Origin: a virus
Taxonomy: Duplodnaviria > Caudoviricetes
Length of the DNA: 64,000 bases
Virus record (IMG/VR): IMGVR_UViG_3300020048_000007
Location: 96,001-160,000 of that record
Reading direction: 5' to 3' (one strand)
Below, piece after piece: positions 1 to 64,000 of this stretch. Position numbers and translations under genes: made by a program. A model generated the notes under the pieces. That model did not search any database and had not been told where the DNA came from. It saw only the letters and a program-made list of their open reading frames with translations. The stretch's first letter is position 1. Every line of letters begins with the position of its first letter.

Positions 1-18
1 CCAAATCTTTCGATTTGG
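1..18 (-). terminator. Hairpin downstream of the capsid gene, probably a terminator truncated by the window edge
   Basis: CCAAATC-GAAA-GATTTGG on the minus strand (GNRA loop), 45 nt after the MCP stop; the U-tract would lie outside the window. Confidence 0.4.
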
Positions 19-62
19 GTATTGTGTTCTATTATGAAGCGAATCTCATAAGAGACGATCGC

Positions 63-1649
63 TTAGAGATTACTAACGTTAATTGTCGCATAGTACAGGC
101 CACCATCTTCAATCAGCTTCTTCCCGTAGCGGCACATGATGCCCTTCGATGGGGAGTAGCTGTTGGGGTCGAGTACCGTTGGGGTGCTCAACAATGGGAT
201 GTATGGAGCGTAGAAGTAACCAGCATCCAGAACGCTTGATCCCTTGAAGCCCATCAGGATTTTGCAGTTCGGGAACAGTGGGTCCTTGTAGAGGCGCATC
301 TTGCCTTGGATTGTTCCAACGTTCATGATGCCGATGTCCACACCTTCGGTGTTCATGGCGTCTGAGGCGCGGAAGTCGTTGAGTTGCTCGAACTTCGATG
401 CGATGTCGGCGCTCATGACCATCCAGTTAGCAGGGCCACGCAGGGTGGTTCTGTGGATGATGTTGGCAACTTCGAGTGACTTGTACATCAGGGCGATGTT
501 ACGGTCGGTGAAGTTAACCGAGGCACCAGCGGCGGTGGCGAAGTTGTGATCGGCGCGGATAGCGGCAGCAATGATGAGGTCATTGATGATTTCCCGGTCG
601 ATTTCGGCAACCATTTCGTCGGCCATGAGGTCGGTCAGGGTGCTCTCAGCGTCAATGTTGTGGACTGACTTGAGGTCTTGAGCGGCTTCCAGGCTCCAGG
701 AGGTCTTCAGCTTACGGGTGATTGCGGAGACCGAATCACTGTCGATGCTGAGGGTGACTTCTGGTTGGAATGGGTTGGATTCCAGGTCGTACTCGTAGTT
801 GATGCGAGCGATCGCGCCAACTGGGAAGATGCCTGCTGTGAGGCGGATGTTTACTTCGCCGGTGGCGTGGTTGAAGCTTGAAGAGGCTTCGTTGACTGCC
901 AGATTAGCGGTGAAGCTACAGTCGCCGATGACAACCGTGTCGACTGCGCCGTCGGAGTCGAAGGTGACGCGGAGACATGGTGTTGGGTCGTTACAAGCTG
1001 GGCTTGCTCCGGCTTCGTCGGTGTAGACTTCTACGGCTACTGTACCGGCGAGTACTGGGCGGTGAGCCAGTGTTTGTTGGACGTGGTTGCGGTTCAGAAT
1101 CGTACCGGTTTCACCCACAACTTGTTGTGAGGAGTAGTATGGGTCGAGAGCCCAGCCGTTGTTACGGGCGTAACTTTGGGCTGTGTTTTGGCGCATGATC
1201 TGTGTTCCGGCTACCGTTTGTCCCTTGGAGAGGGCGTAGCGATAGCGGATGTAGAAGATGAGCGATGCTGGCTGGCTCATTGGCTGGACACCGACCAGGT
1301 TGTCGGCGATCAGCTTTGGATATGATTTGCGGATGAGGGGGAGGGCAAACCGTGTGAAGTCAGCGATGTTCGCTGTCGTGGTTTGGTCTTCCAGGATCAT
1401 GGAGCGGCGTTCTGGGTTCCAGGCGTTGAACTGGTTTTCCAGGATGCTTGCCATGAGGCCGAATTTGGCCTTAGGTACTTCTTTGCACTTGTTGAGGACT
1501 GAGGCCCATTTACCAACGAGTTGGTTTTTCTTGGACTCGTGGATGATGCTGGCCTTGTGGAGGTCCGTGGCGGCTCCAGCGATGGCTTGGCGGTTTTCGG
1601 TGAGGTGACGACGGCCTTGTGGGGCGCGTGATTGTGTTCTGGGTAGCAT
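63..1649 (-). CDS. gp23: Major capsid protein, T4 gp23-like
   Basis: Motifs LVGVQPMSQPASLIFYIRY, TRKLKTSWSLEAAQDL, EIDREII, GYFYAPYIPL, KGIMCRYG; follows protease and scaffold genes. Confidence 0.97.
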   Translation of the reverse strand: MLPRTQSRAPQGRRHLTENRQAIAGAATDLHKASIIHESKKNQLVGKWASVLNKCKEVPKAKFGLMASILENQFNAWNPERRSMILEDQTTTANIADFTRFALPLIRKSYPKLIADNLVGVQPMSQPASLIFYIRYRYALSKGQTVAGTQIMRQNTAQSYARNNGWALDPYYSSQQVVGETGTILNRNHVQQTLAHRPVLAGTVAVEVYTDEAGASPACNDPTPCLRVTFDSDGAVDTVVIGDCSFTANLAVNEASSSFNHATGEVNIRLTAGIFPVGAIARINYEYDLESNPFQPEVTLSIDSDSVSAITRKLKTSWSLEAAQDLKSVHNIDAESTLTDLMADEMVAEIDREIINDLIIAAAIRADHNFATAAGASVNFTDRNIALMYKSLEVANIIHRTTLRGPANWMVMSADIASKFEQLNDFRASDAMNTEGVDIGIMNVGTIQGKMRLYKDPLFPNCKILMGFKGSSVLDAGYFYAPYIPLLSTPTVLDPNSYSPSKGIMCRYGKKLIEDGGLYYATINVSNL

Positions 1650-1701
1650 TTACTAACTCCGTACCTGTTCAGGAAAAAGTGTGTGAAATCGGTTTCTAGT
1701 G

Positions 1702-2412
1702 TCAGACGAGGTCCGTGTCCATGTTTGCCGCGATGTCCAGGACTGTAATGTTACTGGTCGGTCGGACAGTTACGTTACTTTGTCTTGGCTTCGAAGCTGG
1801 ACGGCGCTCTTGGCTTTCGAGAAGAGTGGCGCGAGTCGTTGTCGGCTTGCTTTGACGCACGGTTGGTTCCATTCGGCGGGGTGAGCGGTTTTCTACAACC
1901 GGTCTGCTCGCGTTTTGGAACTTAGCGTTTTCTGCGACTAGGGCTCGGTTTTGCTTCAGGGCTTTTTCGGCGATAGCTGTCTTGCGATTAGCTTCGGCGA
2001 CTGCTCTGTTGCGTTCTTCTGCAAGTTGCTGAGCTCGACGGTTGGCTTTTTCCAGAGCGGCGGCGGATTGTCCATTTGCAATACCATTCAGCTGTACGCC
2101 TTCGAGCAGTGCTCGAACGCTCTTGAGCTTGGTCATTGCTTGGGATTCGCTTAATGCCGACATTTTAGCCAGCTGGGTCTCGATCGCAGCGGATTTTGTC
2201 TCACAGAAAATCTGGAGACGACGGGCTAGCTCACGCTTGTGGGCTTCCGTTTCTTCGACGCAGACCTTCTTGGTTTTTTCAACTGTGCTATTAAAATTAG
2301 CAGCAAATTGCTCTTGAAGACCTGTCTTGTATCTGTCCAAAGATTCAGCAATCGCATTTACCAATTCAGGCTTGCAACCAGACTTGGAGAGCAACTCTTT
2401 GATCTTATCCAT
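1702..2412 (-). CDS. Prohead scaffolding/core protein (gp22-like position)
   Basis: Coiled-coil, charged 236 aa immediately upstream of MCP; several LxE motifs; strong AGGAG RBS. Confidence 0.7.
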   Translation of the reverse strand: MDKIKELLSKSGCKPELVNAIAESLDRYKTGLQEQFAANFNSTVEKTKKVCVEETEAHKRELARRLQIFCETKSAAIETQLAKMSALSESQAMTKLKSVRALLEGVQLNGIANGQSAAALEKANRRAQQLAEERNRAVAEANRKTAIAEKALKQNRALVAENAKFQNASRPVVENRSPRRMEPTVRQSKPTTTRATLLESQERRPASKPRQSNVTVRPTSNITVLDIAANMDTDLV

Positions 2413-2441
2413 TATCAGCTCCTATAGGGACCAGTTTAGCT

Positions 2442-2449
2442 TATTTTTG
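2442..2449 (-). promoter_or_regulatory. Putative late promoter motif CAAAAATA
   Basis: 30-37 nt upstream of the scaffold/MCP operon; motif recurs before many structural genes. Confidence 0.55.
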
Positions 2450-2504
2450 CCGAAATCCCTAAAAATATTCATACTCGGCACAATAGTCATATAGTATTTT
2501 TTTC

Positions 2505-3434
2505 TCAATTATCATCGTCATCGTCATCGTCCTCAGCATAAGCAGCCTTCATATCCTGCAAAAGTTTACCAATCTCATCCACAGTATCAGCAACAGCATT
2601 ACGATCCTTTAACTTATCCAACATAACAGCCTTAAAAACCGCATATTCACGCCTCAACGCAGTCTTAGCAGGCTCAGAAGGCGAAATACCATACACACCA
2701 TCCAAAACACCAAGCATATCAACATACCCATCAGCCGACTCATCAGAACACCCCAAAGCCTTCTTGATAATCCTCTTCAAATTCTTTTGTAGACGGAAGA
2801 ATTTAAGTTGCTTCTCTTGTTGATAAGACTTTTTAACGACATTCTCCCGAACCTCCTTCACAAAATGCGATGCCAGACCAGACTCACCAGCCAAAATAGA
2901 ATCATAAACGCTCTTAGAAATATAATAATCAGCACGAAATGGGATATAAGCATATTTATGAAGAGCAGGCTCATCCAAAAACCGTTTCATAAACCTATCA
3001 TACACAATGTTCATATCATCAGTAAATCCAGAAAAATTCAAAAACGCCGGAGCGTCGCCGAGTCTATCAACATAATCAGTCAAGCAATTAATCATAACAC
3101 TGTAGACAAACACCTCATTCTTCAACCCAGTCTTGTCAAAATTCTCAATGCTACTAGGGTCATTACCCCAAGTCAACCCCGTCCCTACAGAGCCAGGATA
3201 CTTTTTCAAAATCGCTTTCATCACCTTAGACATTCCTAAAGGATCATTGGCTATATTAACATTATAGTAAGGACTCTTAGCCCCAAGCTTAGGATCTCTA
3301 AAAACATAATTAAATTCACCATCTTTGATAATTGGCTCTATACCCAGGCTTTTTAACTTCTGCGGATCTCGGTCAAACACTTCATTAAGAACAAGGCTTA
3401 CTTTTTCATTGAATCTCATAGCGCACCCCAACAT
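2505..3434 (-). CDS. Hypothetical protein, possible internal head protein (alternative start MRFNEKV at 3419)
   Basis: 309-aa ORF with poly-Asp C-terminus; N-terminal LNE motif like protease-processed head proteins. Confidence 0.7.
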   Translation of the reverse strand: MLGCAMRFNEKVSLVLNEVFDRDPQKLKSLGIEPIIKDGEFNYVFRDPKLGAKSPYYNVNIANDPLGMSKVMKAILKKYPGSVGTGLTWGNDPSSIENFDKTGLKNEVFVYSVMINCLTDYVDRLGDAPAFLNFSGFTDDMNIVYDRFMKRFLDEPALHKYAYIPFRADYYISKSVYDSILAGESGLASHFVKEVRENVVKKSYQQEKQLKFFRLQKNLKRIIKKALGCSDESADGYVDMLGVLDGVYGISPSEPAKTALRREYAVFKAVMLDKLKDRNAVADTVDEIGKLLQDMKAAYAEDDDDDDDN

Positions 3435-3490
3435 GGTTCAAGTATAAAATATTTTCACAATCAAACCATAACGGCGACAAGACTACATCA

Positions 3491-3589
3491 TCAGCTCTTA
3501 TAAGATGAACACTTAATAGCAAACCCAACAACAAGTATACCCACAATGAACCAACCAATCAGCTCTACTATCAGCCTGATGCACAGCAT
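3491..3589 (-). CDS. Unannotated 32-aa single-TM microprotein MLCIRLIVELIGWFIVGILVVGFAIKCSSYKS
   Basis: ATG at 3589 with GAGGGGTG RBS, TGA at 3491; fills an intergenic gap; hydrophobic core. Confidence 0.6.
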   Translation of the reverse strand: MLCIRLIVELIGWFIVGILVVGFAIKCSSYKS

Positions 3590-3611
3590 AGATCACCCCT
3601 CGCAAAGCACA

Positions 3612-4316
3612 TCAAAATGTAACGTACTTGATATTTGAAAAGCAAAACTGGTGCCTCTGCCCAGAAGTCAAATGCCCCTGCCAACCATCAGGAATATAGC
3701 AAGTCGTGTCAGCCTTACCTAAAGCAGAAGCAAGAACAGCCTGACCACTAAATGAACACACAAAATGATGACAACTATGGATAACGTCAGCATAGTGCAT
3801 CAACGAATCAACATCAACATGTCCATTAACGGAGAACTCATTATTCACAACCGTGGTAACCTTGCGCTTAAAAACAGGGCTCACTACAAGCTTACCCGGG
3901 AACTGCTCCCGAATCATCTCGTTGAATCGCAACGGTATGCTTTTAGAACCACTCACACCACTAATATCTATGACTATTATATCCTTAAGCTCATCAATAA
4001 AATTGGGCTTGTAATATAACTTGCAAAGGTCATTCTTAGGGGCAAAACCATGAGCGATCTCTTGATTAAAAACAATGTTTTTATGAGGTACTAGCCTCTT
4101 ATCATACATGCAACTACCGATATTATGCGGTTCTTTCGATATGCCTTTAACAAATGGATTTGTCCCCCACACTAGGTCGTATATCTCCGGACTCCTATAG
4201 GCATTAGCTTCTGAGACGTAAAAATCCCATCCACGATCAGCGTATAACTCCGGCAATGTGCTGTATTGAAGATTATCTCCGAGGCCACCCCAAGGCTGAA
4301 ACAAGATTTTATTCAT
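3612..4316 (-). CDS. Glycosyltransferase-like protein (GT-B, GT9/heptosyltransferase-like N-terminus)
   Basis: N-terminal ILFQPWGGLGDNLQYSTLP motif; C-terminal HFVCSFSGQAVLA resembling the GT9 DSG region. Confidence 0.6.
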   Translation of the reverse strand: MNKILFQPWGGLGDNLQYSTLPELYADRGWDFYVSEANAYRSPEIYDLVWGTNPFVKGISKEPHNIGSCMYDKRLVPHKNIVFNQEIAHGFAPKNDLCKLYYKPNFIDELKDIIVIDISGVSGSKSIPLRFNEMIREQFPGKLVVSPVFKRKVTTVVNNEFSVNGHVDVDSLMHYADVIHSCHHFVCSFSGQAVLASALGKADTTCYIPDGWQGHLTSGQRHQFCFSNIKYVTF

Positions 4317-4387
4317 ATATCCTTCTTTGGTCTTAGAGACATTCTAGTAGTATTTACATATAGCCGAACAACATAAGGAACCAAAAA

Positions 4388-5125
4388 ATGAACAATATAC
4401 CAGCTAATAAAGAGACCTGCGAAGTCTCTTTGAATATCCTAAAAAGAATGCAACCATGGGGGGTAAAAAACTCGCCATATGTTTATAACCATATAGTTCC
4501 TGCCTCTACACTAAGCCCTTGGTATAGCGATATAGAATTCATAGAAATCTATTCCAAAATAGGCATAAACTACACCCTCGTCGACCATTATAGGTGCTAT
4601 GAACTCTGGACGCTAGCAAAGCAGACCCACAAGATACCAGGTGTGATCCTTGAAGTTGGTGTATGGAGAGGAGGCTCCGGGGCTCTTCTAGCCAAAGCCG
4701 CACCCGACAAAAAAGTATACTTGGCAGATACGTTTAGTGGGGTCGTCAAGGCATCCAGTAAAGACTTAACTTATATTGGTGGAGAACATTCTGATACTTC
4801 TAGAGCGACAGTCCAGACAATACTGGACGAACTTGACATTACAAACGCGGATGTGCTAGTTGGCGTATTTCCAGACGACACTGGGCATATGATTTCAGAA
4901 AATATAGCGCTATTACATTGTGATGTAGACGTCTATGAGTCAGCAAGAGACATTACGCAATGGTGCCTGCCAAAGCTTTCAGTCGGTGGTATACTCGTAT
5001 TTGACGACTATGGGTTTGAACAATGCAATGGAATAAGCTTACTTTGTGATATGCTTAGAGAAGATGAGAATTTACTGTTTTTATATAATCTAAATGGGCA
5101 TGCGATATTTATTAAAATTAAATGA
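4388..5125 (+). CDS. TylF/MycF-family sugar O-methyltransferase
   Basis: ILEVGVWRGGS, LADTFSG, LLHCDVDVYES, LVFDDYG motifs characteristic of the TylF/NovP family. Confidence 0.88.
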   Translation: MNNIPANKETCEVSLNILKRMQPWGVKNSPYVYNHIVPASTLSPWYSDIEFIEIYSKIGINYTLVDHYRCYELWTLAKQTHKIPGVILEVGVWRGGSGALLAKAAPDKKVYLADTFSGVVKASSKDLTYIGGEHSDTSRATVQTILDELDITNADVLVGVFPDDTGHMISENIALLHCDVDVYESARDITQWCLPKLSVGGILVFDDYGFEQCNGISLLCDMLREDENLLFLYNLNGHAIFIKIK

Positions 5126-6638
5126 TGCTCTTTATAAAACATAATTTCTTACCACCATACTTTTTAATATATCCGAACTGCTCTGCATAAGCGTTCTCAG
5201 TTGTGCTAAGCCTTTTAGCCCTAGAGTATAATGTCTTCTTATGCATCACCCATCCATTCTGATCCACATACCAATAATCAGAGTCAACTTCGTGGTGCAT
5301 TTTAAAACCCAAAGACTTATAGACAGCTCCAGTATGTCCAACTGTGGTGTCACAATAGCTCACTATATTATCACAGTCCAAATGCTTAAAAGTCTTTGAC
5401 AGAAAATAACTAGCCAGATTATGCTTTTGGTAACTGGGATGAATACACAACCTTGCCAATTCTAAACTCTTACCATCGAACTGATGACCAATATTCTGAC
5501 GGACCAAGTTAGAATAAACGGCACAAGCCACTAGCTCATCACCCAAAAAAGCTCCAAAGCATTTGCCTGACCTTCCTTTCCCAATGTAGTGATAAGCATC
5601 GAGGAAGCTATTCAAGGACTTCGCTGATACATCATCAGATATTTTAAGATCCTTAAAATCGAAATCGTTCACCTTAACATCAATGCCAAACTTGGACTTC
5701 AGCCTTCCGAGTACCTTATCCTTAGCATAAAACTCATGCTCCCAGATATACATTATCTCATATTCTGGAAAATACTTCTCGATATAGGTGAATTTAGCCT
5801 TATCTCTGGCAGGTGCTCTTTCTAGTGTGTGCCAATAGTCACCCTGGCATTCAATCAATAGTCTTTTATACCTCGTAGGGACCATACAATCGAAGACATA
5901 TGGCCCTATCACTGTCTTTGGACCCTCTTTGTGATATTCAATATTCAAATCATCTAGAAACTTGTAGAGTAACCTCTGAATATTACTCTCTCTAGGCTGA
6001 TTAGCCCTAGCAACAGCCATTTTGGACTTCACATCTTCAGTATATCCTGATGATTGCTTAGCTCTGTAGCCATCATTATTCCATAAAACTTTGCTCTGTC
6101 TACTCTTTAATTCAGAATAGTCTTCTCTTTGCCAAGCCAATTTTACTGATTCTGATAGCATCTTAATTCTCTGTGTATCAGACCATATCTTCTGTGATAT
6201 TTCCGATCTTCTGTCTTTGGATAACTCCTTTTTAGCAGCCATTTGGTCCCTATAACTGCTATCGGCCCATCTCTCTTTAGCTAATTCTGATAATTTCTTT
6301 TTACCCTCTTCGGATGGAGTATTGTGAACAATGATGAATTTTCCGTCCTTATGCCCCTGAACCATAGCACAATGATGGCATCTCCAATCTTTAAACCTTC
6401 CAGCCCTAAATAGCTGCTCCTGTGTCTTTCCACAATCAATACAAGTGTAGGTGACAATTTCGTTAGTCTTCATCTCATGCTTCTGCTTAACACATGACAT
6501 GCATATATGCTCTGGCTTTCTTTTAGCCACTTGATATAGCTGGCTTCTAGGCTTATTGCATTTTTCGCAGACGACAATAATTTTGTCTTTATTTTTCGCT
6601 ATTTCTGGCGATGATTTTGAAAGCTGCCAGTCTATCAT
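5118..6638 (-). mobile_element. Free-standing Hef-like endonuclease: Zn-finger repeats + Vsr/DUF559 nuclease + Mom-like GNAT domain
   Basis: CxxC pairs; VFDCMV..LLIECQGDYWH (Vsr-like); FLDAYHY..ELARLC..SYCDTTVGHTGAVYKSLGF..YWY (Mom-like); ATG at 6638 with AGGAG RBS. Confidence 0.75.
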
Positions 6639-6644
6639 ATTGGT

Positions 6645-6674
6645 GCTCCTTATAATATTTATAATACAAGGAGC
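6645..6674 (-). promoter_or_regulatory. RBS-sequestering hairpin containing TATAAATA late-promoter box
   Basis: Minus strand GCTCCTTGTAT-TATAAATA-TTATAAGGAGC: 10-bp stem (one G-U) buries AAGGAG; TATAAATA at 6656-6663. Confidence 0.65.
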
Positions 6675-6695
6675 TGCCAAGCTACGGATTATATG

Positions 6696-6724
6696 AAAAA
6701 GGCCAACAGTTTCCTGTTGGCCTT
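6696..6724 (-). terminator. Rho-independent terminator after prohead protease
   Basis: GGCCAACAG-GAAA-CTGTTGGCC followed by TTTTT on the minus strand. Confidence 0.85.
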
Positions 6725-6753
6725 GGGCCTAGGATAAAACCCTAGGGGAGGAA

Positions 6754-7476
6754 TTATTTAACACCAAAATACTTGTTGATCTCTTTAACAAGCATGTCCT
6801 GGTATACTTCTGGTCTAAACATCGCCTTCTTCTCTTGAATAGGACGCACTCTTTTTTGCAGTCCTTCTGAGATGTTTAGAATAGCGCCAGTTACTGATGG
6901 TTCAGCGACAACATCCCACGTCACGAAAGAATACCCTGGCAGCACTCTGTAGATCTCTTTGCCATTGTGTTCGACAATTTCCATGTCGCCCACGCCGCGA
7001 GAGGAGATCCCGACTTGGATTTTGTGCTCAAACAGGCCCCGTAGGCATGCCCCCAGTGGTAGTTTGTGCAGCACTTCTGCCTCACCGTATACCTTTTTGC
7101 CTTCCATCCAGATTTTAGTCATGAGGTGACTAATGCGATCTAGGTGGATTTTGGCGTCTGCTGGGTGGTCGTATTCGCCCATCACTGATCTTCTTGAGAT
7201 ATCCTCTTGGATGTCTCTTACAGCTGGGCCTAGCACATCGTTAGAGCTGTATACTCTACCGTTGGCATTTTCGTTATCGCCCATTTGGATGAGCCCGGTG
7301 ATTTTCATCACTTGGTGCTCACGTCCATTTGAGTCTTCTGCCATCACTTTTTTCTGGTCAAGCACTTGGAATGGGTAAGTGTCTTGCATCAGGGAGTAAC
7401 CAGCAGGAATCATGCCGGTTTCGGCTATCAGCCGCCGATCAATTGATCGGCGGTTTGCGTTTCTTGAGCGGATCAT
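6754..7476 (-). CDS. gp21: Prohead core protease, T4 gp21-like
   Basis: NANGRVYS, MGEYDHP, IHLDRISH, GISSRGVG, FVTWDVVAEPSVTGA motifs. Confidence 0.95.
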   Translation of the reverse strand: MIRSRNANRRSIDRRLIAETGMIPAGYSLMQDTYPFQVLDQKKVMAEDSNGREHQVMKITGLIQMGDNENANGRVYSSNDVLGPAVRDIQEDISRRSVMGEYDHPADAKIHLDRISHLMTKIWMEGKKVYGEAEVLHKLPLGACLRGLFEHKIQVGISSRGVGDMEIVEHNGKEIYRVLPGYSFVTWDVVAEPSVTGAILNISEGLQKRVRPIQEKKAMFRPEVYQDMLVKEINKYFGVK

Positions 7477-10400: not shown

Positions 10401-10712
10401 GGAGTCTTCGAATAATCCGGCTTTTTCACCTTCAACGACCTCAATAGAACGAATATTGCTGATAGCAATACGGCCTTGATCTTTTGTATGCGATGCTACA
10501 AAAAATTGATTGTCATTGACGTCTTCAATGAATAAATCTTTAGAGCGAAGAGCGGCTAATCGCCACTGTTTGCCCGCCAATTTACCCATCTCTTCGACCT
10601 TTTCGGAGAAGAATGAAACTCTTGCTTGAGCGCTATCGTTCAACGCACTCAGAAACTTTCGGCTATCCATTTTGATACTTGAACTAGCCATAGTATTCTG
10701 ATTTTGTGCCAT
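7473..10712 (-). CDS. Very large acidic prohead core-like protein (~1080 aa) at the T4 gp67/gp68 position
   Basis: Between portal and protease; helical N-terminal half, PA-rich linker, D/E-rich C-terminus, many LxES/LxEA/LAED motifs; ATG at 10712 with AAGGGG RBS. Confidence 0.7.
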   Translation of the reverse strand: MAQNQNTMASSSIKMDSRKFLSALNDSAQARVSFFSEKVEEMGKLAGKQWRLAALRSKDLFIEDVNDNQFFVASHTKDQGRIAISNIRSIEVVEGEKAGLFEDSCLRLVNAIEENDQSKMSSAFGRMKAQRFSGRTVPASGVVRTRDGIIRNISVSQDGFNESVKDKLVSTIVESLQDKVIVENGQVTAGYFNDGQRFRLPVTKWATRKLVARKMRDVANTAYQSQGFQERILAVSNMIAENKIENAIKTLAPFLMEMEEFTLLNRKQVSTLIENTLATQGVFNQQLCDDTSTLFFKTNLKVSKNKIVKEWKAIARNAEHPVLAENVQILSESKNFEASYNKFLHLVFEAISNRQVAAESLATTLQVLRDKTPKIKESHDLSSKLMSLISRLKRSDFDDSAIYEAEDLIATIQEELSASESLKDFDSMPGDIGGAGGGMNAPVDAISNGGGKGQPIININSPLIQIGGSSGSAEEEELDPEMPPSEDDELDSMLGGEEEFAPAPAPAPAPAPAPAGPGAAGAPAAPAAPAPPRFESRNRFSSLNESRPLHYEMNDENDDLSDDTEEVDHEIEESNDPYAFSGKGKSSYLMEYGSPVIKDEADLDRVVGLMRRLAVEHNLTGRDLAENLDDMAEASIEAVGLRVPEARMEAAIEQAVQTFISEAKAPFPGAAKPFAKKHKDDEDSDEETEESDGNPFATVKESDDQLSNDMEEYDVFERDSYDKEYVKVGTKTGRQLAQKYGYDWDEIVKGGYIVLARDIYNAMETGNLVDLFARRADGTPPPVHPGDEDDGFAEDQYKSARMKKAGYGRAGMTASKSKRGVASEGKITWLERQEDAAMGMINGVNFILDHGGSASSIQPVILSEDGISAEIPIPAKLVKGALASAGLAKGDSSAFTRWLTESVEQLRGASSEEDQALNEAMAVITTGKNGSMKVELSGDIDVDDEDIDDEDMDEMKPVDAVEIEPVDDTIEVKKDLDGDEMPDFDKDDESDDEEDEDEESDEDDESDNDDEEGLAEDMDITAPSEGGYNKVANADRREVPKHAIGKKGNGNKLEGMGPDLKTDDGKGSNPPFARKGGKK

Positions 10713-10752
10713 GTTATGACCCCTTATGCTTGCATGCATATTAAACTACTCA

Positions 10753-10760
10753 TAAATTTG
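10753..10760 (-). promoter_or_regulatory. Putative late promoter variant CAAATTTA
   Basis: 41-48 nt upstream of the core protein start; preceded by TCGG like the 2442 site. Confidence 0.4.
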
Positions 10761-10798
10761 CCGAGAAACCAACCATATGTCTCTCCGGCCAGACCCGT

Positions 10799-12781: not shown

Positions 12782-12809
12782 CGAAAAATCCCCGTATGTA
12801 TTGTTAATA

Positions 12810-30246: not shown

Positions 30247-30266
30247 AGAACTGCTCCTGACCAGTC

Positions 30267-30389: not shown

Positions 30390-30397
30390 AATTCCTA

Positions 30398-31030: not shown

Positions 31031-31042
31031 TGGGCACCACCT

Positions 31043-50683: not shown

Positions 50684-50690
50684 GTGTGCC

Positions 50691-51530: not shown

Positions 51531-51531
51531 G

Positions 51532-54807: not shown

Positions 54808-55185
54808 ATCCCAAGTTATTTCTACTAATTCTTCGGGAATAACCTCTACGACATCCGAAGGCAACTTAAAACCATCTAACTCTACGTGCCAGTCATCTTC
54901 TTTCACATAAGCCATTGTTCCTGAATCATTTGTCTTGCATTTATAGCCTATACAGTGCACTATCTGAGGTTCAGCACCTAATTGCATTGCGACTCTGCGT
55001 CTATAGAAGACGATCTGTCCCGGTTTTAGCTTTATTGTGAGTATTTTCTTAGTGGATGAGGCTACTAAAGATATTTCTGTTAGATTATGTCTGCTCATCT
55101 TCTCGAGTGGGACACCACCCATTTGTGTCACGTATTGCCCGTCTGCGTATCTCGCAAGCCATACTAGTCGCATCTTATACACCAC
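54805..55185 (-). CDS. Hypothetical protein
   Basis: 126-aa ORF with AGGTG RBS. Confidence 0.7.
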   Translation of the reverse strand: MVYKMRLVWLARYADGQYVTQMGGVPLEKMSRHNLTEISLVASSTKKILTIKLKPGQIVFYRRRVAMQLGAEPQIVHCIGYKCKTNDSGTMAYVKEDDWHVELDGFKLPSDVVEVIPEELVEITWD

Positions 55186-57317: not shown

Positions 57318-57614
57318 TCACTCGCAAGAAGTACAACCGACGTGTACCTTCTTCTTGAACAACCCACCAAGAAGACTTCGCTTAGCCTTATGAGGAACGG
57401 CCTCAACGACCTCTTCCTTATAACCAACCACTACAGTCTCCTTTACAGTGATTTGCTTTTCACGAACCTCAGTGACAGGAACCCGTTTGATCAAAACAGG
57501 CTTCTTAACCACCACAGTCTCTTCGACATATGCAACGGAATACTGGGGACAACAATCACCAGCTACAGCAGTCGAAGAACCAGCCAACAGCAGCAATGCA
57601 GCAAAACTCTTCAT
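57318..57614 (-). CDS. Secreted small protein with signal peptide and terminal Cys pairs
   Basis: MKSFAALLLLAGSSTAVA signal peptide; DCCP at the N-end, Val-rich beta stretch, LLGGLFKK..GCTSCE at the C-end; AGGAG RBS. Confidence 0.75.
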   Translation of the reverse strand: MKSFAALLLLAGSSTAVAGDCCPQYSVAYVEETVVVKKPVLIKRVPVTEVREKQITVKETVVVGYKEEVVEAVPHKAKRSLLGGLFKKKVHVGCTSCE

Positions 57615-57661
57615 GGGAATCTCCTAAAATGTCGTGAAACATCAATCAACTGGTCTCACTG

Positions 57662-57669
57662 AAAATATA
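57662..57669 (+). promoter_or_regulatory. Putative late promoter variant AAAATATA
   Basis: 18-25 nt upstream of the plus-strand ATG at 57687. Confidence 0.35.
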
Positions 57670-57686
57670 ATACTAGGAAGAAACAC

Positions 57687-58232
57687 ATGAAACTAATACA
57701 AATATCTGAAGCTAAAGATGCCCACATAATAAAACACCAAAGCGAAGCCATAGGAAAGTTAAAAACCTACATAACGAAATATAAAAACCAAAAAGCGATG
57801 AAAGCGATAGAGAAAATATTCAGTGATCCGGATATCAGCACTTGGAAACAAAACTCCTGGATTGTCACTGACACGATCAATAACCTAGAAAAAGATCAAA
57901 AACTAGACCAAACAGAAAAACAGAGTGCCATAGCACAGCTTAAAACTATACTGACAACACCACCAGCAATTGTAATATCATCGCTTTATAGCATTCCTAA
58001 AGAACAATTAAAAGATACCGCTCTTAAAAACTTAAATCTAAGCCCCTCCGAAAACAAAAGACTTAAAAAGGGCTTAGGACCTCAAGGATATATCGCAGCG
58101 TTATCCTCAGCAGACAATATGCGAAGTAGCACCTTAAAGAAAACGCTATTAGACATTTCCAAAAACAGCGACTCAACATCTCAATCAATAAGACAGTCAA
58201 TACCAGGCGTCAATATCGTTAAAGACTTCTAA
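57687..58232 (+). CDS. Hypothetical protein, possible internal head protein
   Basis: MKLIQISEA N-terminus resembles prohead-protease-cleaved leaders. Confidence 0.7.
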   Translation: MKLIQISEAKDAHIIKHQSEAIGKLKTYITKYKNQKAMKAIEKIFSDPDISTWKQNSWIVTDTINNLEKDQKLDQTEKQSAIAQLKTILTTPPAIVISSLYSIPKEQLKDTALKNLNLSPSENKRLKKGLGPQGYIAALSSADNMRSSTLKKTLLDISKNSDSTSQSIRQSIPGVNIVKDF

Positions 58233-58770
58233 ATATTTCTCTAAGATCATCAATATTAATGCCTTCAAAATCTATATAAGCATGGTTATTGCATTTCATA
58301 AACAGAAAAAGCATATCAACCTCTTGTATCCTATCAGGCATCCCCACAATATCAAAACCGAGTACCTTACTGAAATCATGTAACGACTTACGGCGAGCAT
58401 CATCGAATATCTCATAAATGAAAGATTCTTCCTCATTCATAAAGCTGCGATAAATGCGGTATAATTTATAAGCACAAACTGGGTCGGGCCGGTTAGTATT
58501 AAAACTGCCATGAAATTCATACCTAGATCTGAATATCTCAAGATTTTTGTATAAATCATAGTCCTCAAGACACACTATCGGCTCGCATTCATATGCGATC
58601 GATAATTTAGATCTAAAATCAAAAGTCCGTCGCGCGATATAAGATTCACAATCATCCGCAAATCGTAATTTATCGCCAACAGCCAAAACATCATCGTGTT
58701 TTAAAGTGATGAAAAAACTGACGAAATCTTTGTTCGTCTCTATTGTTATACAAACACAGCTTTCATTCAT
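58219..58770 (-). CDS. Hypothetical protein
   Basis: ATG at 58770 with GGAG RBS. Confidence 0.65.
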   Translation of the reverse strand: MNESCVCITIETNKDFVSFFITLKHDDVLAVGDKLRFADDCESYIARRTFDFRSKLSIAYECEPIVCLEDYDLYKNLEIFRSRYEFHGSFNTNRPDPVCAYKLYRIYRSFMNEEESFIYEIFDDARRKSLHDFSKVLGFDIVGMPDRIQEVDMLFLFMKCNNHAYIDFEGINIDDLREIFRSL

Positions 58771-61627: not shown

Positions 61628-63537
61628 CAGTTCACCATTCCTGTTACTTTGGAAATCTGTAACTCAATTCTCTGACGAATTGTAAGCTCTTTTAGTTTAT
61701 CATGTATTGCTTTGTTTTTATCATGATGCTGATACCATCCCTCAGATCTACCATGATGAAGATGCAGAAGATTGTACGTTCTGTTGTCTAAATATTTTGA
61801 CCCTCCCGACATTCTTTCATAGAAATCACAATCTTCACACCCGTAACCCCAAAAATCCTCGTTAAATCCGCCTATTTTCCAATAAGCATCCTTTGTACAT
61901 GCCAAAGAGCCTCCCTCATAGTATCCCACAACACGCTCAAACACAGGCTCTGATACTTCTTCAGAACTATTAATGCGATCGGTACTCGCCTTATCTGCGT
62001 ACACTACCGTAGACCCCAGATGACAAGACTCATAATTGTCCAGCACATCGCTTACTTCAGATGTATACCCATTGATAGCAAGCATGTCAGCATCATGTAA
62101 GATTATCTTATTGCTTGTAGCTTTGGAAACACCAAGATTAAACGCTTTGGCTTTATTGAAAGAATGCTCCTCTGCAACATTAACTTTATAATATCTTATT
62201 GGTTCATATTGCGATACATCTATTTTTTGAGTCTGGTCTTCTTCTACTAATATTATCTCTATGTCTGGGTATTTTTGGGCTCTTATATTATTCAGTACTG
62301 TGTTGAGAGAACCAGATCGTTCCTGCTCTCTAAAAGGAACTATAAATGTGACCTTTGGAATACACGAATCTTCAGTGAAATCATGCTTTAATTTCTTCAG
62401 ACTGTCGTATTTGTCACGAGCAGATTTTAGACACTCATTCTTGTCGTCTATGGAAGTACTTTCTTTATGCAATTTAATATATGATTCACTGCTATGGAGA
62501 TCATAGTAACCTTCTTTTTGCATTTTATTTGCATAGGCTCTAGAAGACCATTCTATATGTTCCAAACCATAATATCCAAAATCCTCGTTGAATGCTCCAA
62601 CAGCACGAAAATACTCGTTTGTAAAAGCCAACAGTGCACCATGCGGTCTGTCGTTGACTACATTTAACTGTACTCCATTTACAACAGTACTCATTCCTTT
62701 ATCTGCACCATATATTCCGGCCTGTCTAAAGACGAGATGGTGCATCATCGATTTTTTCAAACCATCAGCATAGAAATATTCCCAACCAGGCTTCAATATC
62801 TCTATATCGTCATTTAACAAAATACCGTATTGAAATCTGCTTAAAGCACGTAGTAATCTGTTCGAGTTTCCAGCCACCCCAAGTCTAACATTGTTTTTTA
62901 TGACCACAATGTTTGATTGTTCACGTAATTCTTCTAAGTATGCGATTAATTCCGGGTCCGTGCTGCAATCGTCACTAACAAATACAGTCGTAGAATTTAA
63001 GTTAGTGTTTTTGTTTATACTGTCAATGAGACGCTCTAACGAGTCTTTCCTGTTGTAAGATAATATACCCACTCCGATATTGTTGCTGATTGGATATAGA
63101 CCCTTACTGTTTTTAATCAAACCAACAGCTGTTCGTTGTATTTTGATTTTTTCATCTTCCGAAAGCTGCTTACCCACGATCTTATTGACTGATTTCTGGG
63201 CTGGTACTAGCTGTCGTGTATTCTGCCTGCTGCCAATGATTGTGCGTCGCTGAGGCTGAGGCTGAGGCTGAGGCTGCCTATGATGCTGCATTAATGGAGT
63301 TATTACTGGTTTTGTTGGCGTGTTGACTTTTTCGACTTTCTCGACTTTTTGGCTTATGATTGGTATGGACGGTTTTAATGTCTCATTGTTATTCAGGTTT
63401 ATTAAAAATCCCCTCTGCCGGTAAATCTCATAATATGCAGGAAGATTCACTATTTGCCTGCTCTTGATCTTAACTATTTGTCCTTCTGGACCAGTTATAT
63501 GCACTGTATGATGGTGCGGGTTTTGGTATTCTGGCAT
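61624..63537 (-). CDS. Tandem double GT2 glycosyltransferase with N-terminal extra domain and Q/P linker
   Basis: Domain 1 GILSYNR..VSDDCS..LLNDDIE..FGYYGLEH; domain 2 FIVPFRE..FNKAKAFNLG..ILHDADM..GGFNEDFWGYGCEDCDF; ATG at 63537 with AGGAG RBS. Confidence 0.9.
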   Translation of the reverse strand: MPEYQNPHHHTVHITGPEGQIVKIKSRQIVNLPAYYEIYRQRGFLINLNNNETLKPSIPIISQKVEKVEKVNTPTKPVITPLMQHHRQPQPQPQPQRRTIIGSRQNTRQLVPAQKSVNKIVGKQLSEDEKIKIQRTAVGLIKNSKGLYPISNNIGVGILSYNRKDSLERLIDSINKNTNLNSTTVFVSDDCSTDPELIAYLEELREQSNIVVIKNNVRLGVAGNSNRLLRALSRFQYGILLNDDIEILKPGWEYFYADGLKKSMMHHLVFRQAGIYGADKGMSTVVNGVQLNVVNDRPHGALLAFTNEYFRAVGAFNEDFGYYGLEHIEWSSRAYANKMQKEGYYDLHSSESYIKLHKESTSIDDKNECLKSARDKYDSLKKLKHDFTEDSCIPKVTFIVPFREQERSGSLNTVLNNIRAQKYPDIEIILVEEDQTQKIDVSQYEPIRYYKVNVAEEHSFNKAKAFNLGVSKATSNKIILHDADMLAINGYTSEVSDVLDNYESCHLGSTVVYADKASTDRINSSEEVSEPVFERVVGYYEGGSLACTKDAYWKIGGFNEDFWGYGCEDCDFYERMSGGSKYLDNRTYNLLHLHHGRSEGWYQHHDKNKAIHDKLKELTIRQRIELQISKVTGMVNC

Positions 63538-63538
63538 A

Positions 63539-64000
63539 CTATCTCCTAATCTCCACGTACAATGGTGCAAAATTTATTGGATCGTCGTCATTCAGTCTGA
63601 ACCTACTTGGTCTTATTAATAGATTCCCCTCATAAGACCCTTGCCCCTGAATGATAGCGTCAATGACTGATGGGTTAAGTATCACTGTATTTTTTGTCTT
63701 TAAAGTATTCACGAGCTTTCCAAAGACATCTTCAATAAGCCCCGGGCTCACACATTTGTTTAAGGACGTCCTCACATCTACTAACGTCAGAATATCACCA
63801 GCAATACTAAAATGATATTGTGCTTGCTCTATTTTTATGACGTTCATTAATCTAACATAGTTGACTAACTCATCCTTCACGAATTTTCTGCTAGTAATTC
63901 CAAGCGGTGTCACGTCTGATTCTAATTCTATCAGATTGCCAGCAGCATCGGAAAAAACAGTGTAGACATCATCCTTCTGGGTGTCTCGATAAATCAGAAC
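63539..64000 (-). CDS. Hypothetical protein, 5' end truncated by the window edge
   Basis: The frame of the 63539..63913 ORF stays open to position 64000 (VLIYRDTQKDDVYTVF..). Confidence 0.7.
   Translation of the reverse strand, partial: VLIYRDTQKDDVYTVFSDAAGNLIELESDVTPLGITSRKFVKDELVNYVRLMNVIKIEQAQYHFSIAGDILTLVDVRTSLNKCVSPGLIEDVFGKLVNTLKTKNTVILNPSVIDAIIQGQGSYEGNLLIRPSRFRLNDDDPINFAPLYVEIRR

Follow-up and report, generated by a model that had tools for sequence, protein, structure and literature searches.

Blocks, ramps, and resets in the window

The stretch of DNA analysed here (64,000 nt; the window) belongs to a 231.7-kb phage record, G000, whose sequence is a metagenome-assembled contig. 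G000 is an uncultured freshwater T4-like giant phage. The skew pattern described below was seen genome-wide, beyond the window, and is expressed mainly as K3, the G+T fraction at third codon positions, read on either the plus strand or the coding strand.

A G+T-rich block (63..2412) contains a Gp23-type major capsid gene (63-1649, minus strand; Pfam Gp23) and ORF 1702-2412 (minus strand), with plus-strand K3 of 0.72 and 0.58. Its G+T is 0.56-0.64 and its GC skew +0.12 to +0.25 in 500-nt windows, and the skew of segment 691-1950 is at GRINS level. The block is followed by a reset (2413..2504) at the start of ORF 1702-2412, where plus-strand K3 falls from 0.45 to 0.10 (steps of -0.35 at 2458 and -0.41 at 2532). 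The adjoining block (2505..4316; minus-strand ORFs 2505-3434, 3406-3558, and 3612-4316) is A+C-rich, with plus-strand K3 of 0.20 to 0.31, a 4-fold value of 0.13, and coding-strand K3 of 0.62 to 0.94. A multi-gene ramp (4388..10739) then runs across five ORFs, one of which is on the plus strand, and G+T in 500-nt windows climbs from 0.46 to 0.62 over ~6 kb. It ends in a reset (10740..10798; -0.28 at 10769, -0.33 at 10734) where ORF 7473-10739 starts, directly downstream of the portal gene. The Gp20-type portal gene (10799..12781, minus strand) has an internal gradient, its coding K3 climbing from ~0.5 (5' end) to 0.8-0.9 (3' half), and its segment 11011-11880 is also skewed at GRINS level.

In nrdJ, the gene for class II ribonucleotide reductase (28003..30246, minus strand), coding K3 is 0.12-0.24 at the 5' end and increases near-linearly until it reaches 0.92 at the 3' end. 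This gradient is common to relatives at 90-92% amino acid level (slopes +0.47 and +0.55) and to some at 60%, while most others are without it. Two resets with a sharp rise between them (30229..31105) lie at the starts of nrdJ (30246) and ORF 30398-31105 (31105), with steps of -0.40 at 30229, -0.32 at 30246, +0.39 at 30791, -0.37 at 31036, and -0.36 at 31052. The steps at 2458, 10769, 30246, and 31036 represent the sharpest flips in the window. Further A+C-rich stretches were found inside the 1357-aa ORF 36962-41035 on the minus strand (38071..39390; G+T 0.35-0.39, coding K3 up to 0.84), across four minus-strand ORFs (50459..52435; plus-strand K3 0.22 to 0.34), and at 57342..58410 (G+T 0.34-0.40). 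The last of these covers plus-strand ORFs 57342-57662 and 57687-58232 together with a neighbouring minus-strand ORF, so that its skew is blind to gene orientation. Two more resets, at 44517..44531 (-0.36) and 55171..55185 (-0.34), are each 14 nt off the start of an ORF (43707-44531 and 54805-55185, respectively).

Size and reality of the skew

The sequence-only reading had proposed a kilobase-scale alternation of G+T and A+C on the basis of six hand counts of G+T per 60-nt line (40, 19, 40, 15, 24, 41). These counts were exact on recount, all six lines lie inside minus-strand ORFs as it had stated, and the nrdJ 5' codons that it cited were found in the sequence (line 30181). G+T ranges from 0.34 to 0.66 in 500-nt windows of the 64,000-nt stretch, and 50-codon windows span third-position G+T values of 0.04 to 0.94 on the plus strand, with an s.d. 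of 0.150 vs. a binomial value of 0.070. Per gene, plus-strand K3 is 0.20 to 0.72, and 4-fold sites give 0.13 to 0.70. The proposed flips inside single genes were borne out by the aggregate window variance, compared with synonymous shuffles inside each gene (z = 17.8), and by the nrdJ and portal gradients. Autocorrelation at 4-fold sites, the check suggested at that time, was 0.51 at 300 nt, vs. 0.17 in the flat relative G015.

An oscillation with a period was not supported, as the spectral peak at ~8 kb was not significant when set against an AR(2) null (p = 0.16) and the spectrum of the relative G006 is without a peak. Phased packaging, which had been suggested as a cause, is disfavoured by the same lack of a significant period. 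Abrupt flips had also been claimed at three divergent junctions. The claim is correct for 31036 only, a junction that is co-oriented, not divergent, by ORF calls; the steps at 12808 and 42405 are -0.03 and -0.07, and a step of -0.33 near the former was placed at 12878, not at the junction.

The metagenomic assembly of the source contig could raise the suspicion of chimeric assembly or a damaged template. However, contigs from other lakes, obtained in three separate studies with one independent run each, span the flips. The resets at 2413..2504 and 10740..10798 are both spanned by independent contigs of X9, X13, and X3, and a single 26.6-kb contig of X9 covers 75-13000. IMG/VR contigs of other samples share the landscape (L087, r = 0.98), reading frames are uninterrupted, and most of the changes are synonymous. 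The bridging contigs, the L087 landscape, and the intact frames refute an assembly artefact, including the chimeric breakpoints that the sequence-only reading had allowed for, and we give an artefact of any kind practically no credence.

The skew is a property of the DNA strand

The plus-strand K3 values of neighbouring genes are correlated whether the two genes lie on opposite strands (r = 0.62 for all pairs, 0.84-0.93 for long genes) or on the same one. Genes of the plus strand have a plus-strand K3 of 0.42, and genes of the minus strand one of 0.46. Both results confirm that the skew is independent of gene strand. Codon positions 1 and 2 vary far less between genes than position 3, and they track K3 (r = 0.35-0.5, slopes 0.14-0.20); intergenic DNA tracks the K3 of its flanks (r = 0.68). 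The earlier assignment of the signal to wobble sites thus describes where it is strongest, at third positions and 4-fold sites, but positions 1 and 2 and intergenic DNA follow more weakly. Differences in K3 between orthologues are paired with differences at positions 1+2 in the same direction (r = 0.24 and 0.13), and the partial correlation of orthologue K3 with positions 1+2 controlled is essentially the same, in line with the view that amino-acid needs are insufficient to explain the pattern. G3 and T3 go up together, and A3 and C3 go down together: one window has G 0.39, T 0.49, C 0.07, and A 0.06, and another G 0.07, T 0.08, C 0.40, and A 0.46. The pattern therefore belongs to the DNA strand rather than to codons, and it affects all site classes. 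It is left by a strand-asymmetric pressure at the DNA level along the keto/amino axis, C -> T and A -> G on one strand, whose sign and strength vary along the genome.

Drops are anchored at gene starts

Significant steps number 73 in 231 kb, which is not one single skew, and the statement that ordinary replication skew is insufficient was upheld. When ORF starts were taken as gene starts, 62% of the significant down-steps lay within 100 nt of a gene start, vs. 3% of the up-steps and 18% of random positions. Steps averaged -0.088 +/- 0.021 at co-oriented junctions with a gap, -0.104 +/- 0.029 at divergent junctions, and +0.006 +/- 0.028 at convergent junctions, indicating that divergent junctions reset whereas convergent ones do not. 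The rises are gradual and located inside genes; coding K3 climbs from 5' to 3' in genes of both strands (+0.10 and +0.12), with C3 going from 0.23 to 0.20, G3 from 0.18 to 0.21, A3 down, and T3 up. On the gene strand, a K3 dip is limited to the first 600-800 nt past starts (0.43-0.47 vs. 0.53-0.56 upstream). The only sequence motif shared at resets was the rare AAATATA[AT] (16 sites).

These data show that the skew is anchored at gene starts, by the rule that the strand running 5' to 3' into a gene start is the G+T-rich one on both sides; as a result, along any strand, G+T increases slowly over a gene or operon until the next start, where it falls sharply. Since up-steps nearly match down-steps in number (31 vs. 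42 in G000, 43 vs. 44 in G006), the start-anchored rule covers only part of the variance. Of the excess variance, between-gene level makes up 68% and within-gene trend 23%. There are thus two layers, namely orientation-blind regional blocks of 1-3 kb and a superimposed gene-start rule.

The process had been called positioned, and both the clustering of down-steps at starts and a landscape common to relatives with saturated synonymous sites agree with this. Transcription-start-linked gradients are the one candidate of the sequence-only reading that matches the anatomy, and fixed Okazaki or priming sites are contradicted by it. By standard strand geometry, many origins or fixed priming sites, each with a sawtooth of single-strand exposure, would both make the G+T skew rise abruptly and fall gradually, whereas the anchored steps are abrupt falls. 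T4 Okazaki fragments are kilobase-scale, similar in length to the skew blocks, and the composition bears the C>T plus A>G signature that fixed replication landmarks would give; however, there is no period, and origin-like polarity is confined to a feature of G006 at 33 kb. We regard such landmarks as scarcely credible. The polarity rules out origins, fixed Okazaki priming, and classical transcription-associated deamination. The last predicts a G+T-rich coding strand right past the promoter and the opposite is observed, while phage T4 lacks such swings and shows the ordinary G+T-rich coding-strand pattern (coding K3 0.54-0.56).

A different effect of transcription is a serious though unlikely alternative. 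As has been proposed for unicellular fungi, initiation complexes of RNA polymerase may bring about one strand-biased regime of mutation or repair and elongation/termination complexes another. The coding strand would then carry an A/C bias just past the start and a G/T bias closer to the 3' end, possibly reinforced by R-loop feedback on G-rich strands. In these fungi, the bias of the coding strand passes from C at the 5' end to G at the 3' end and extends to 4-fold sites, amino acids, and non-coding flanks; the AT skew, which lies on the purine axis, is uniform along genes (PMC3315797). The gene-phased polarity of G000 is alike, including the directions of the C3 and G3 trends, but its axis is keto. 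The confinement of the K3 dip to the region past starts and the occurrence of resets solely where a gene starts also speak for this model. On the other hand, A3 falls and T3 rises in G000, unlike the uniform fungal AT skew, and most of the variance is regional and blind to gene orientation.

The landscape is conserved but restricted to certain lineages

The complete distant relative G006 (about 44% amino acid identity) has a K3 s.d. of 0.149 and a slope of +0.085 +/- 0.011, and obeys the same rules as G000, with steps of -0.069 at gapped co-oriented, -0.061 at divergent, and +0.012 at convergent junctions. Its landscape correlates with that of G000 in gene means (r = 0.35), slopes (r = 0.37), and within-gene windows (r = 0.40). 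At saturated synonymous sites, the landscape correlation is r = 0.61 for L014 and r = 0.55 for L059. The largest feature of G006, at 33 kb, is an abrupt rise, the sole feature of origin-like polarity; from 33.5 to 38 kb, G+T is 80-88% at all positions and C is 1-5%. The gain of the skew differs by lineage: G000 and G006 have a strong skew, G016 and G009 a weak one, and G015 a faint one, whereas G018 and T4 lack it. G018 is flat over 178 kb and G011 is flat around nrdJ. The pattern is absent in T4 and in two genomes of the same family, and is thus not equally common in unrelated phages, another possibility raised earlier. The complete, flat G015 retains a faint copy of the landscape (r = 0.2-0.34), as expected if the layout of transcription units is the anchor; this hints at a family-wide determinant such as that layout, whatever the mechanism. 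A base-modification footprint through purZ did not stand, as purZ-type genes occur in flat relatives too.

The pattern is thus conserved in position and restricted to certain lineages. Because some relatives share it and others do without it, it reflects a strand-biased DNA process, not codon choice or assembly error. It is the trace of a previously undescribed process of this type; the pressure stems from the phage's own DNA metabolism, and its gain differs between lineages of the T4-like family.

Selection at the nucleic-acid level is an improbable source of the skew. Stretches of A+C or of G+T cannot self-pair by Watson-Crick rules and would keep mRNA or single-stranded DNA unstructured, with A/C-rich message 5' ends favoured. 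The A/C enrichment of coding strands over the first 600-800 nt past starts fits this idea, and weak selection would likewise give a position conserved across saturated divergence with nearly unbiased recent changes. However, the regional component takes either sign whichever strand is transcribed, the skew is missing from close family members that have the same genes, amino-acid positions are dragged along, the G006 block is almost C-free at every position, and whole-gene gradients have no fitness rationale.

Recent changes and recombination

Strain differences are clustered (variance/mean 4.8), and the identity of G000 to G003 varies from 68% to 99.7% in a mosaic manner, from which we infer frequent recombination between diverged genomes. 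Blocks might accordingly have been imported from donor phages with opposite uniform skews. Such mosaic ancestry is very improbable: none of 54 relatives outside the species has a uniformly extreme, donor-like skew, skew magnitude is unrelated to G003 identity (r = -0.03), within-gene gradients are smooth and without steps, the landscape recurs at orthologous codons despite saturated synonymous sites, and the steps follow the gene-start rule. The donor search, the smooth gradients, the shared landscape, and the gene-start rule largely refute it.

Polarised strain changes (421 singletons, 4,909 third positions) favour the local skew only 1.3-1.45-fold per site, vs. the 2.1-2.4-fold required at equilibrium (z = +2.4 vs. 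symmetry, z = -3.8 vs. equilibrium). A steady point-mutation bias of the required size was therefore not seen. The bias of recent strain changes is too weak to sustain the skew, and a repair or conversion bias is possible. Nearly symmetric recent changes together with a strong, position-conserved long-term skew are the signature expected of a fixation bias.

One form of such bias, which we consider rather improbable, is that mismatch correction in intermediates of replication or recombination is asymmetric with respect to the keto/amino axis, for example when performed by a phage NucS/EndoMS-type endonuclease, so that alleles making one strand G+T-rich would be preferentially fixed near heteroduplex sites. 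G000 carries a predicted full-length NucS/EndoMS homologue (230002-230637; Pfam NucS_N + NucS_C) that matches PDB 2VLD (E = 2e-24) and 5GKE (E = 2e-19) and keeps the D...ExK residues. EndoMS of C. glutamicum depends on the sliding clamp and is specific for G/T, G/G, and T/T but not C/A mismatches (PMC6159521). All four genomes with the signal (G000, G006, G016, and G009) carry the gene, three flat genomes of 99-100% CheckV completeness (G013, G015, and G020) lack it, and the frequent recombination and the disparity between recent changes and long-term composition also favour a conversion bias. However, an intact NucS ORF occurs in flat G018 and NucS occurs in G011, so that NucS is not sufficient for the skew; the association is not significant (about p = 0.12, nine non-independent genomes), clustered and isolated strain changes lean equally toward the skew (40% vs. 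37%), and the sign of the predicted bias hinges on details of strand choice. The predicted NucS gene may thus offer a weak lead to the cause of the skew.

Possible mechanism

The best explanation, which we adopt tentatively, is a keto/amino strand pressure of phage DNA metabolism, through single-stranded exposure or repair at gene starts. Nicks, breaks, or fork arrests may be concentrated at gene-start regions during recombination-dependent replication and repair. The 3'-ending strand would be left single-stranded, or preferentially kept, on either side of the gene start, and deamination-type transitions or asymmetric mismatch correction would then enrich it in G and T. Origins, Okazaki priming, strand displacement, and divergent transcription would each leave the reverse of the observed abrupt drop, whereas 5'-to-3' resection at a break or nick, or converging forks, would produce just such a drop. 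The observed polarity is compatible with single-stranded 3' tails at gene starts or with forks that converge there.

A keto/amino skew at the kilobase scale

The source record (IMG/VR; 231,672 bp, of which the window is bases 96001-160000; completeness by CheckV 64%) belongs to a T4-like jumbo myovirus. The phage sequence of the window was found in many freshwater and lake metagenomes, and a megablast search of the phage collection with a 20-kb query returned no match. Nearly all ORFs of the window lie on the minus strand; among the genes are those for the Gp23-type major capsid protein (63-1649, minus strand), the Gp20-type portal protein (10799-12781), the class II ribonucleotide reductase (nrdJ, 28003-30246) and the tail sheath (47496-50387), and baseplate genes are likewise present. 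We expressed the skew as K3, the G+T fraction at third codon positions, read either on the plus strand (plus-strand K3) or on the gene's own strand (coding K3).

The alternation of A/C-rich and G/T-rich blocks described in the sequence-only reading was confirmed. The G+T content per 500 nt ranged from 0.34 to 0.66 with GC and TA skew moving together, and all six hand counts of G+T were reproduced exactly. Plus-strand K3 per gene extended from 0.20 (ORF 2505-3434) to 0.72 (the capsid gene), two genes of the same strand ~850 nt apart, and codon positions 1 and 2 varied far less than K3. The flips inside single genes were also real, as the variance among 50-codon windows exceeded that of 1,000 within-gene synonymous shuffles (aggregate z = 17.8). 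In nrdJ, for which a switch between the two ends of the gene had been noticed by eye, coding K3 rose almost linearly from 0.12-0.24 at the 5' end to 0.92 at the 3' end. Over the whole record, the s.d. of K3 in 50-codon windows was 0.150 as compared with a binomial expectation of 0.070, and the values ranged from 0.04 to 0.94. Extreme windows contained 0.39 G, 0.49 T, 0.07 C, and 0.06 A, or the mirror image of 0.07 G, 0.08 T, 0.40 C, and 0.46 A. Since G and T increase jointly at the expense of A and C, the axis is keto/amino, along which transitions move.

Chimeric assembly, which had been named as a possible trivial cause, does not account for these changes. The sharpest two flips in the window are spanned by Logan contigs from three independent sequencing runs, each from a different study: a single 26.6-kb contig of run X9 extends across 75-13000, contigs of run X13 cover 75-3097 and 6687-13000, and contigs of run X3 cover 220-2855 and 10351-11308. 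The same landscape was present in IMG/VR contigs of other samples (r = 0.98 for L087 and 0.90 for L034). The skew is not an assembly artefact.

The notion of a periodic oscillation was not upheld, because the spectral peak at ~8 kb (8.3 kb) had p = 0.16 against AR(2) red noise and was missing from G006, a complete genome of a related phage with a similar skew. The autocorrelation test that had been suggested for 4-fold degenerate sites could be run against within-gene synonymous shuffles (z = -3 to -8), but these shuffles are the wrong null; they raise autocorrelation because gene means are kept and gradients are removed. The variance test is the valid one instead.

The skew follows the DNA strand

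As had been claimed, the skew is independent of gene strand: plus-strand K3 had a mean of 0.42 for genes on the plus strand and of 0.46 for those on the minus strand. It was correlated across junctions between genes of opposite strands (r = 0.62, n = 48) no less than across junctions within one strand, and when only long genes were considered the correlation was 0.84 (n = 18) or 0.93 (n = 8). The assignment of the signal to wobble positions needs to be widened. It was strongest at third positions, but codon positions 1 and 2 also tracked local K3 (r = 0.35-0.5, slopes 0.14-0.20), and intergenic DNA tracked the K3 of its flanks (r = 0.68, slope 0.37). Differences in K3 between orthologues were accompanied by differences at positions 1 and 2 in the same direction (r = 0.24 against G006 and 0.13 against G015, a complete genome with a flat K3 profile). 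That amino-acid needs do not explain the pattern held as well, in that controlling for positions 1 and 2 left the correlations behind the shared K3 landscape unchanged (partial r = 0.34 and 0.23). That the landscape is seeded by amino-acid composition was rejected, since K3 of the present phage correlated with positions 1 and 2 of a relative only at r = 0.09-0.12. The pattern thus fits a directional pressure on DNA that is strongest at the least constrained sites and pulls the protein sequence slightly along, a reading that is well supported. Such a pressure, which moves amino-acid positions too, shapes protein evolution.

Gradients and resets at gene starts

Of the excess variance in K3, 68% lay between gene levels and 23% in linear trends within genes, leaving a small residue. 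Coding K3 rose from 5' to 3' with slopes of +0.10 ± 0.03 and +0.12 ± 0.02 for genes of the two strands, and 70% of the slopes were positive. By decile along the coding strand, C at third positions went from 0.23 to 0.20, G from 0.18 to 0.21, A from 0.31 to ~0.25, and T from 0.29 to ~0.35. A profile that climbs slowly and then falls abruptly is unchanged by reverse complementation; therefore one DNA-level rule is viewed from both strands.

The abrupt drops were located at gene starts. Plus-strand K3 changed by -0.088 ± 0.021 at co-oriented junctions with an intergenic gap, by -0.042 ± 0.012 at co-oriented junctions that overlap or abut, and by -0.104 ± 0.029 at divergent junctions, where two starts meet. 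At convergent junctions, where two ends meet, the change was +0.006 ± 0.028 (p = 0.01 for divergent against convergent). There were 73 significant steps in 231 kb, 42 down and 31 up; 62% of the down-steps lay within 100 nt of a gene start, compared with 3% of the up-steps and 18% of random positions. On the gene's own strand, K3 was 0.53-0.56 upstream of the start and 0.43-0.47 in the first 400-600 nt, and recovered by ~1 kb. The clearest of these resets in the window are at 2458, 10769, 30246, 31036, 44517, and 55171.

A promoter motif search found no common sequence motif at the resets. The canonical T4 late promoter TATAAATA is rare (7 occurrences), and AAATATA[AT] was rejected as the anchor because it is too rare. 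The latter, which may be a promoter element, occurred within 60 nt upstream of 16 gene starts on the same strand of the record, and the reset at these starts (-0.13 ± 0.03) was larger than average.

Distribution among related phages

Keto heterogeneity was greatest in the present species when 54 fetched loci, each 10 kb or longer, were compared. The nrdJ gradient was likewise strongest here (+0.69), was common to relatives of 90-92% amino-acid identity, was partial in a few relatives of 60% identity, and was missing in most others. Several lineages of 50-60% amino-acid identity, whose third positions are saturated (identity 0.35-0.40), were still strongly heterogeneous and shared the landscape of the present phage at orthologous codons (r = 0.61 for locus L014, 0.55 for L059, and ~0.4 for L042, L029, L005, and L067). 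Other lineages showed binomial noise and r ~0.

The whole-genome controls were decisive, and the comparison with related phages that had been proposed as a check set skewed genomes apart from flat ones. G006 (356 kb with terminal repeats, GC 34%, ~44% amino-acid identity) was skewed in the same way: the s.d. of K3 was 0.149, the slope was +0.085 ± 0.011, and resets were -0.069 at co-oriented junctions with a gap and -0.061 at divergent junctions, with none at convergent junctions (+0.012). Resets were absent from G015 (364 kb; s.d. 0.079, slope -0.004), from the 178-kb genome G018 (s.d. 0.086, slope +0.001), and from 50 kb of T4 structural genes (s.d. 0.083, slope -0.003), which had a mild coding-strand keto bias only. 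Two further genomes, G016 and G009, gave s.d. of 0.090 and 0.087, slopes of +0.033 and +0.027, and weak resets in the same direction.

Over 90 orthologues, the present phage and G006 agreed in gene-level K3 (r = 0.35), in slopes (r = 0.37), and in within-gene windows (r = 0.40). A faint version of the landscape, with roughly a third of the amplitude, was unexpectedly present in the flat G015 as well (r = 0.32, 0.34, and 0.20). A landscape common to the two skewed phages and faintly to G015 is therefore anchored to something conserved in the family, with the lineages differing in gain; most simply, the anchor is the layout of genes and transcription units. We conclude that the keto/amino strand skew is real and strong, is anchored at gene starts, is conserved by position, and is restricted to certain lineages.

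The extent that the pressure can attain is illustrated by a segment of G006 at 33.5-38 kb (L091:13500-18000, continuing to 44 kb in L092), which consisted of 80-88% G+T at all positions, with 1-5% C and 11-19% A. The skew fell to ~0.6 over 10 kb, and the left flank (19-31 kb) was strongly A+C-rich. Its ORFs are all short and lie on both strands, the segment has no long tandem repeat, and its polarity is an abrupt rise, opposite to that of the gene-start resets.

Polarity of the anchored steps

Single-stranded exposure or G·T-type errors would enrich the affected strand in G and T. An abrupt rise of plus-strand skew would then be predicted by a bidirectional origin, by fixed Okazaki priming, by strand displacement from a nick, or by divergent transcription with classical deamination of the non-template strand. 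The anchored steps are abrupt falls, and therefore the strand that runs 5' to 3' into a gene start is G+T-rich on both sides. Judged from strand geometry, this polarity speaks against the fixed Okazaki priming sites proposed in the sequence-only reading, which would give a rise at the site. It would agree with 3'-ended single-stranded tails left by 5'-to-3' resection at a break or nick, and equally with forks converging on the site. T4-type phages initiate most of their replication through recombination, and in them the hotspots of recombination lie at origins that contain promoters. By analogy, a link of gene starts to breaks or fork arrest would be plausible.

Skewed segments might also have been imported as a mosaic from other phages. 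This alternative is disfavoured, as no donor of uniformly extreme skew was present among the 54 fetched loci, the magnitude of the skew was unrelated to identity with the related genome G003 (r = -0.03), and the gradients are smooth.

Recent changes among close strains

We polarised singleton changes by majority among six strains of 94-99% identity (G000, the present record; G001, G002, G005, L084, and L086), which gave 421 changes at 4,909 third positions. In G+T-rich blocks 29 changes were toward keto and 41 toward amino bases, and in A+C-rich blocks 107 were toward keto and 61 toward amino. Per site, changes leaned toward the local skew by 1.3-1.45-fold, whereas 2.1-2.4-fold is required for equilibrium (z ~ +2.4 against symmetry and z ~ -3.8 against equilibrium). 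Since the lean is below what equilibrium needs, a steady point-mutation bias of the required strength was not seen. The process may instead be episodic, or there may be imports from less skewed relatives, for which the clustering of strain differences (variance/mean 4.8) speaks. Alternatively, a fixation bias, either conversion or weak selection, may act on a near-symmetric supply of mutations. Clustered and isolated changes were toward the skew in 40% and 37% of cases, respectively, which does not discriminate between conversion and mutation. Polarisation with G003 and G004 as outgroups was discarded, because these are saturated and skewed alike and would bias parsimony toward changes away from the skew.

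When window positions 1-13000 were compared with strains in four other runs, which are not mutually independent, G>A plus T>C differences numbered 356 and A>G plus C>T differences 243. Over this segment as a whole, the present record more often had G or T where the strains had A or C than the reverse.

Comparison with known skewed systems

GRINS, reported in 2021, are duplicated regions (>500 bp, >80% identity) in polyketide synthase clusters that have been tied to gene conversion between paralogous modules (PMC8256042). The phage skew resembles them in its intense GC and TA skews that change together along the keto/amino axis, are strongest at third positions, take both signs on one strand within ~1 kb, change abruptly, have a measurable effect on amino acids, and are unexplained in cause (PMC8256042). 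By the GRINS threshold (mean absolute GC and TA skew >0.15 over >500 bp), four segments of the window qualified (691-1950, 11011-11880, 38071-39390, and 57361-58410); the genome as a whole has 14, with a combined length of 14.2 kb. GC and TA skew at all sites were positively correlated in 150-nt windows (r = 0.34 for the window, 0.23 genome-wide). Self-BLAST detected no pair of >80% identity over 500 bp as in GRINS, only internal repeats of 70-75% in two genes. Unlike GRINS, the phage skew is genome-wide over unrelated genes and follows a gene-start rule.

In unicellular fungi, a C bias of the coding strand at its 5' end gives way, through intermediate values, to a G bias at the 3' end, with effects on 4-fold sites, amino-acid usage, and flanking non-coding DNA that selection on protein or translation does not explain (PMC3315797). 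AT skew (A over T) is uniform along fungal genes and positively tied to GC skew, which makes a purine axis (PMC3315797) and thus argues against deamination-type transitions in fungi. The phage genes share the C-biased 5' and G-biased 3' ends and the effects on 4-fold sites, amino-acid positions, and flanking non-coding DNA. They differ in that AT skew is not uniform; TA skew flips together with GC skew as A3 falls and T3 rises. Moreover, the amplitude in a single gene is far larger (0.12 to 0.92), much of the skew is regional and indifferent to gene orientation, and the genome is that of a bacterial virus.

The skews of bacterial replichores and human N-domains are sawtooth patterns of the same quantity, G+T against A+C, with an upward jump at origins. 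The phage pattern has abrupt jumps and gradual returns as well, but its anchored jumps are downward, number dozens per genome, and are located at gene starts. The start-anchored steps (-0.088 and -0.104) are not the negative-to-positive jump of an origin, and the 73 significant steps in 231 kb exceed the one or few switches per replicon of that type. The vertebrate mitochondrial heavy strand, with one origin pair, undergoes C>T and A>G changes that form near-linear gradients over kilobases with extreme third positions and a matching ongoing substitution bias. Similar to this, the phage extreme windows and the G006 segment are enriched as by C>T and A>G on the same strand, and the gradients are near-linear over kilobases, but they are many and of both signs, and recent changes are weakly biased. 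Transcription-associated asymmetry, a G+T excess of the coding strand, is alike in its strand specificity and its link to transcription units. T4 shows a mild pattern of this type, with a coding K3 of 0.54-0.56 and a sign that follows the coding strand. In the present phage the sign did not follow the coding strand, given the positive correlation across opposite-strand junctions, and the coding strand is A+C-rich just after starts.

No account of such a pattern turned up in searches of the open-access literature on keto skew and strand asymmetry in phages. A strand skew is usually taken to reflect transcription or the direction of replication, and the extreme local skew here behaves as neither. 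It can mislead the prediction of origins, codon-usage prediction of hosts, and the detection of horizontal transfer in phage genomes. The on/off contrast between close phage families offers a comparative handle on the responsible enzyme or process, which GRINS and the fungal skews lack.

Candidate genes

A PurZ-type adenylosuccinate-synthase-like gene at 213650-214750 of the record (L088:8650-9750) scored 236 bits, below the NCBIfam PurZ cut-off of 300. It has orthologues of 60-63% identity in G006, G011, and G012 and homologues of 39-40% in G013-G015. A base-modification footprint, suggested earlier, could operate through purZ, as 2-aminoadenine in DNA would be deaminated directly to G. The distribution does not favour this, since purZ-type genes are present in the flat G011 and G012 (63%) as well as in the skewed G006.

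Gene content shared by the present phage and G006 but not G015 amounted to 26 genes; those with Pfam matches were mostly glycosyltransferases, and many had no Pfam match. The only DNA-related genes among them were for NucS, an ATP-dependent ligase, and a metallophosphoesterase. The NucS/EndoMS homologue (230002-230637 of the record, outside the window; L134:1-636) is full-length with Pfam PF21003 and PF01939. It matched PDB 2VLD (E = 1.8e-24) and 5GKE (E = 1.9e-19) over residues 5-198, and the D...ExK nuclease motif was aligned and kept. It has Asn-Tyr where the archaeal proteins have Asn-Trp. Homologues were detected in G006, G009, G011, G016, and G018, and none was found in the flat genomes G013, G015, and G020 (CheckV 99-100% complete). 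NucS is thus present in all four genomes with the signal (the present one, G006, G016, and G009), but G011 has it too, and the flat G018 carries an intact copy. The gene could thus be required at most, without being sufficient, and its association with the skew is not significant.

EndoMS of C. glutamicum acts together with the sliding clamp, which stimulates it, and cleaves mismatches of the G/T, G/G, and T/T types while leaving C/A uncut (PMC6159521). If the phage enzyme resembles it, this specificity would place NucS chemistry on the keto/amino axis. One may then imagine a keto-biased counterpart of GC-biased gene conversion, in which the phage's own clamp-linked, G/T-mismatch-specific endonuclease of the NucS type would drive keto/amino fixation on intermediates of replication and recombination polarised around gene starts; we consider this improbable. 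Directional conversion of alleles would silently recode whole genes so that one strand gains G+T and the other A+C. If true, keto-biased gene conversion would also offer a mechanism for GRINS.

Other features of the genome

ORF 2505-3434, which is acidic, scaffold-like, and most extreme in skew, was unusually variable, with 76% amino-acid identity in L087, a contig otherwise ~97% identical. Against the X9 contig it had two diverged patches of ~100 nt each (2778-2878 and 3143-3241). ORF 5118-6680 was cleanly missing in one lake strain, where the X13 contig joins window position 5123 to 6687. Diverged internal repeats (~70-75% identity, shifted copies) were found in two large ORFs, at window 15452-17131 (ORF 15193-17499) and at 64921-69002 of the record.

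Contigs of run X15, a freshwater metatranscriptome, covered the capsid gene and its neighbour (window 144-2467) and were deepest there within the first 13 kb, which indicates presence in an RNA library only. They were accordingly rejected as evidence for transcription starts.

Two separate ORFs, at 174087-176813 and 178345-179739 of the record (L089:6087-8813 and 10345-11739), make up the family C DnaE-type alpha subunit of DNA polymerase. One ORF corresponds to the N-terminal ~400 profile positions and the other to the remainder, and other genes lie in between.
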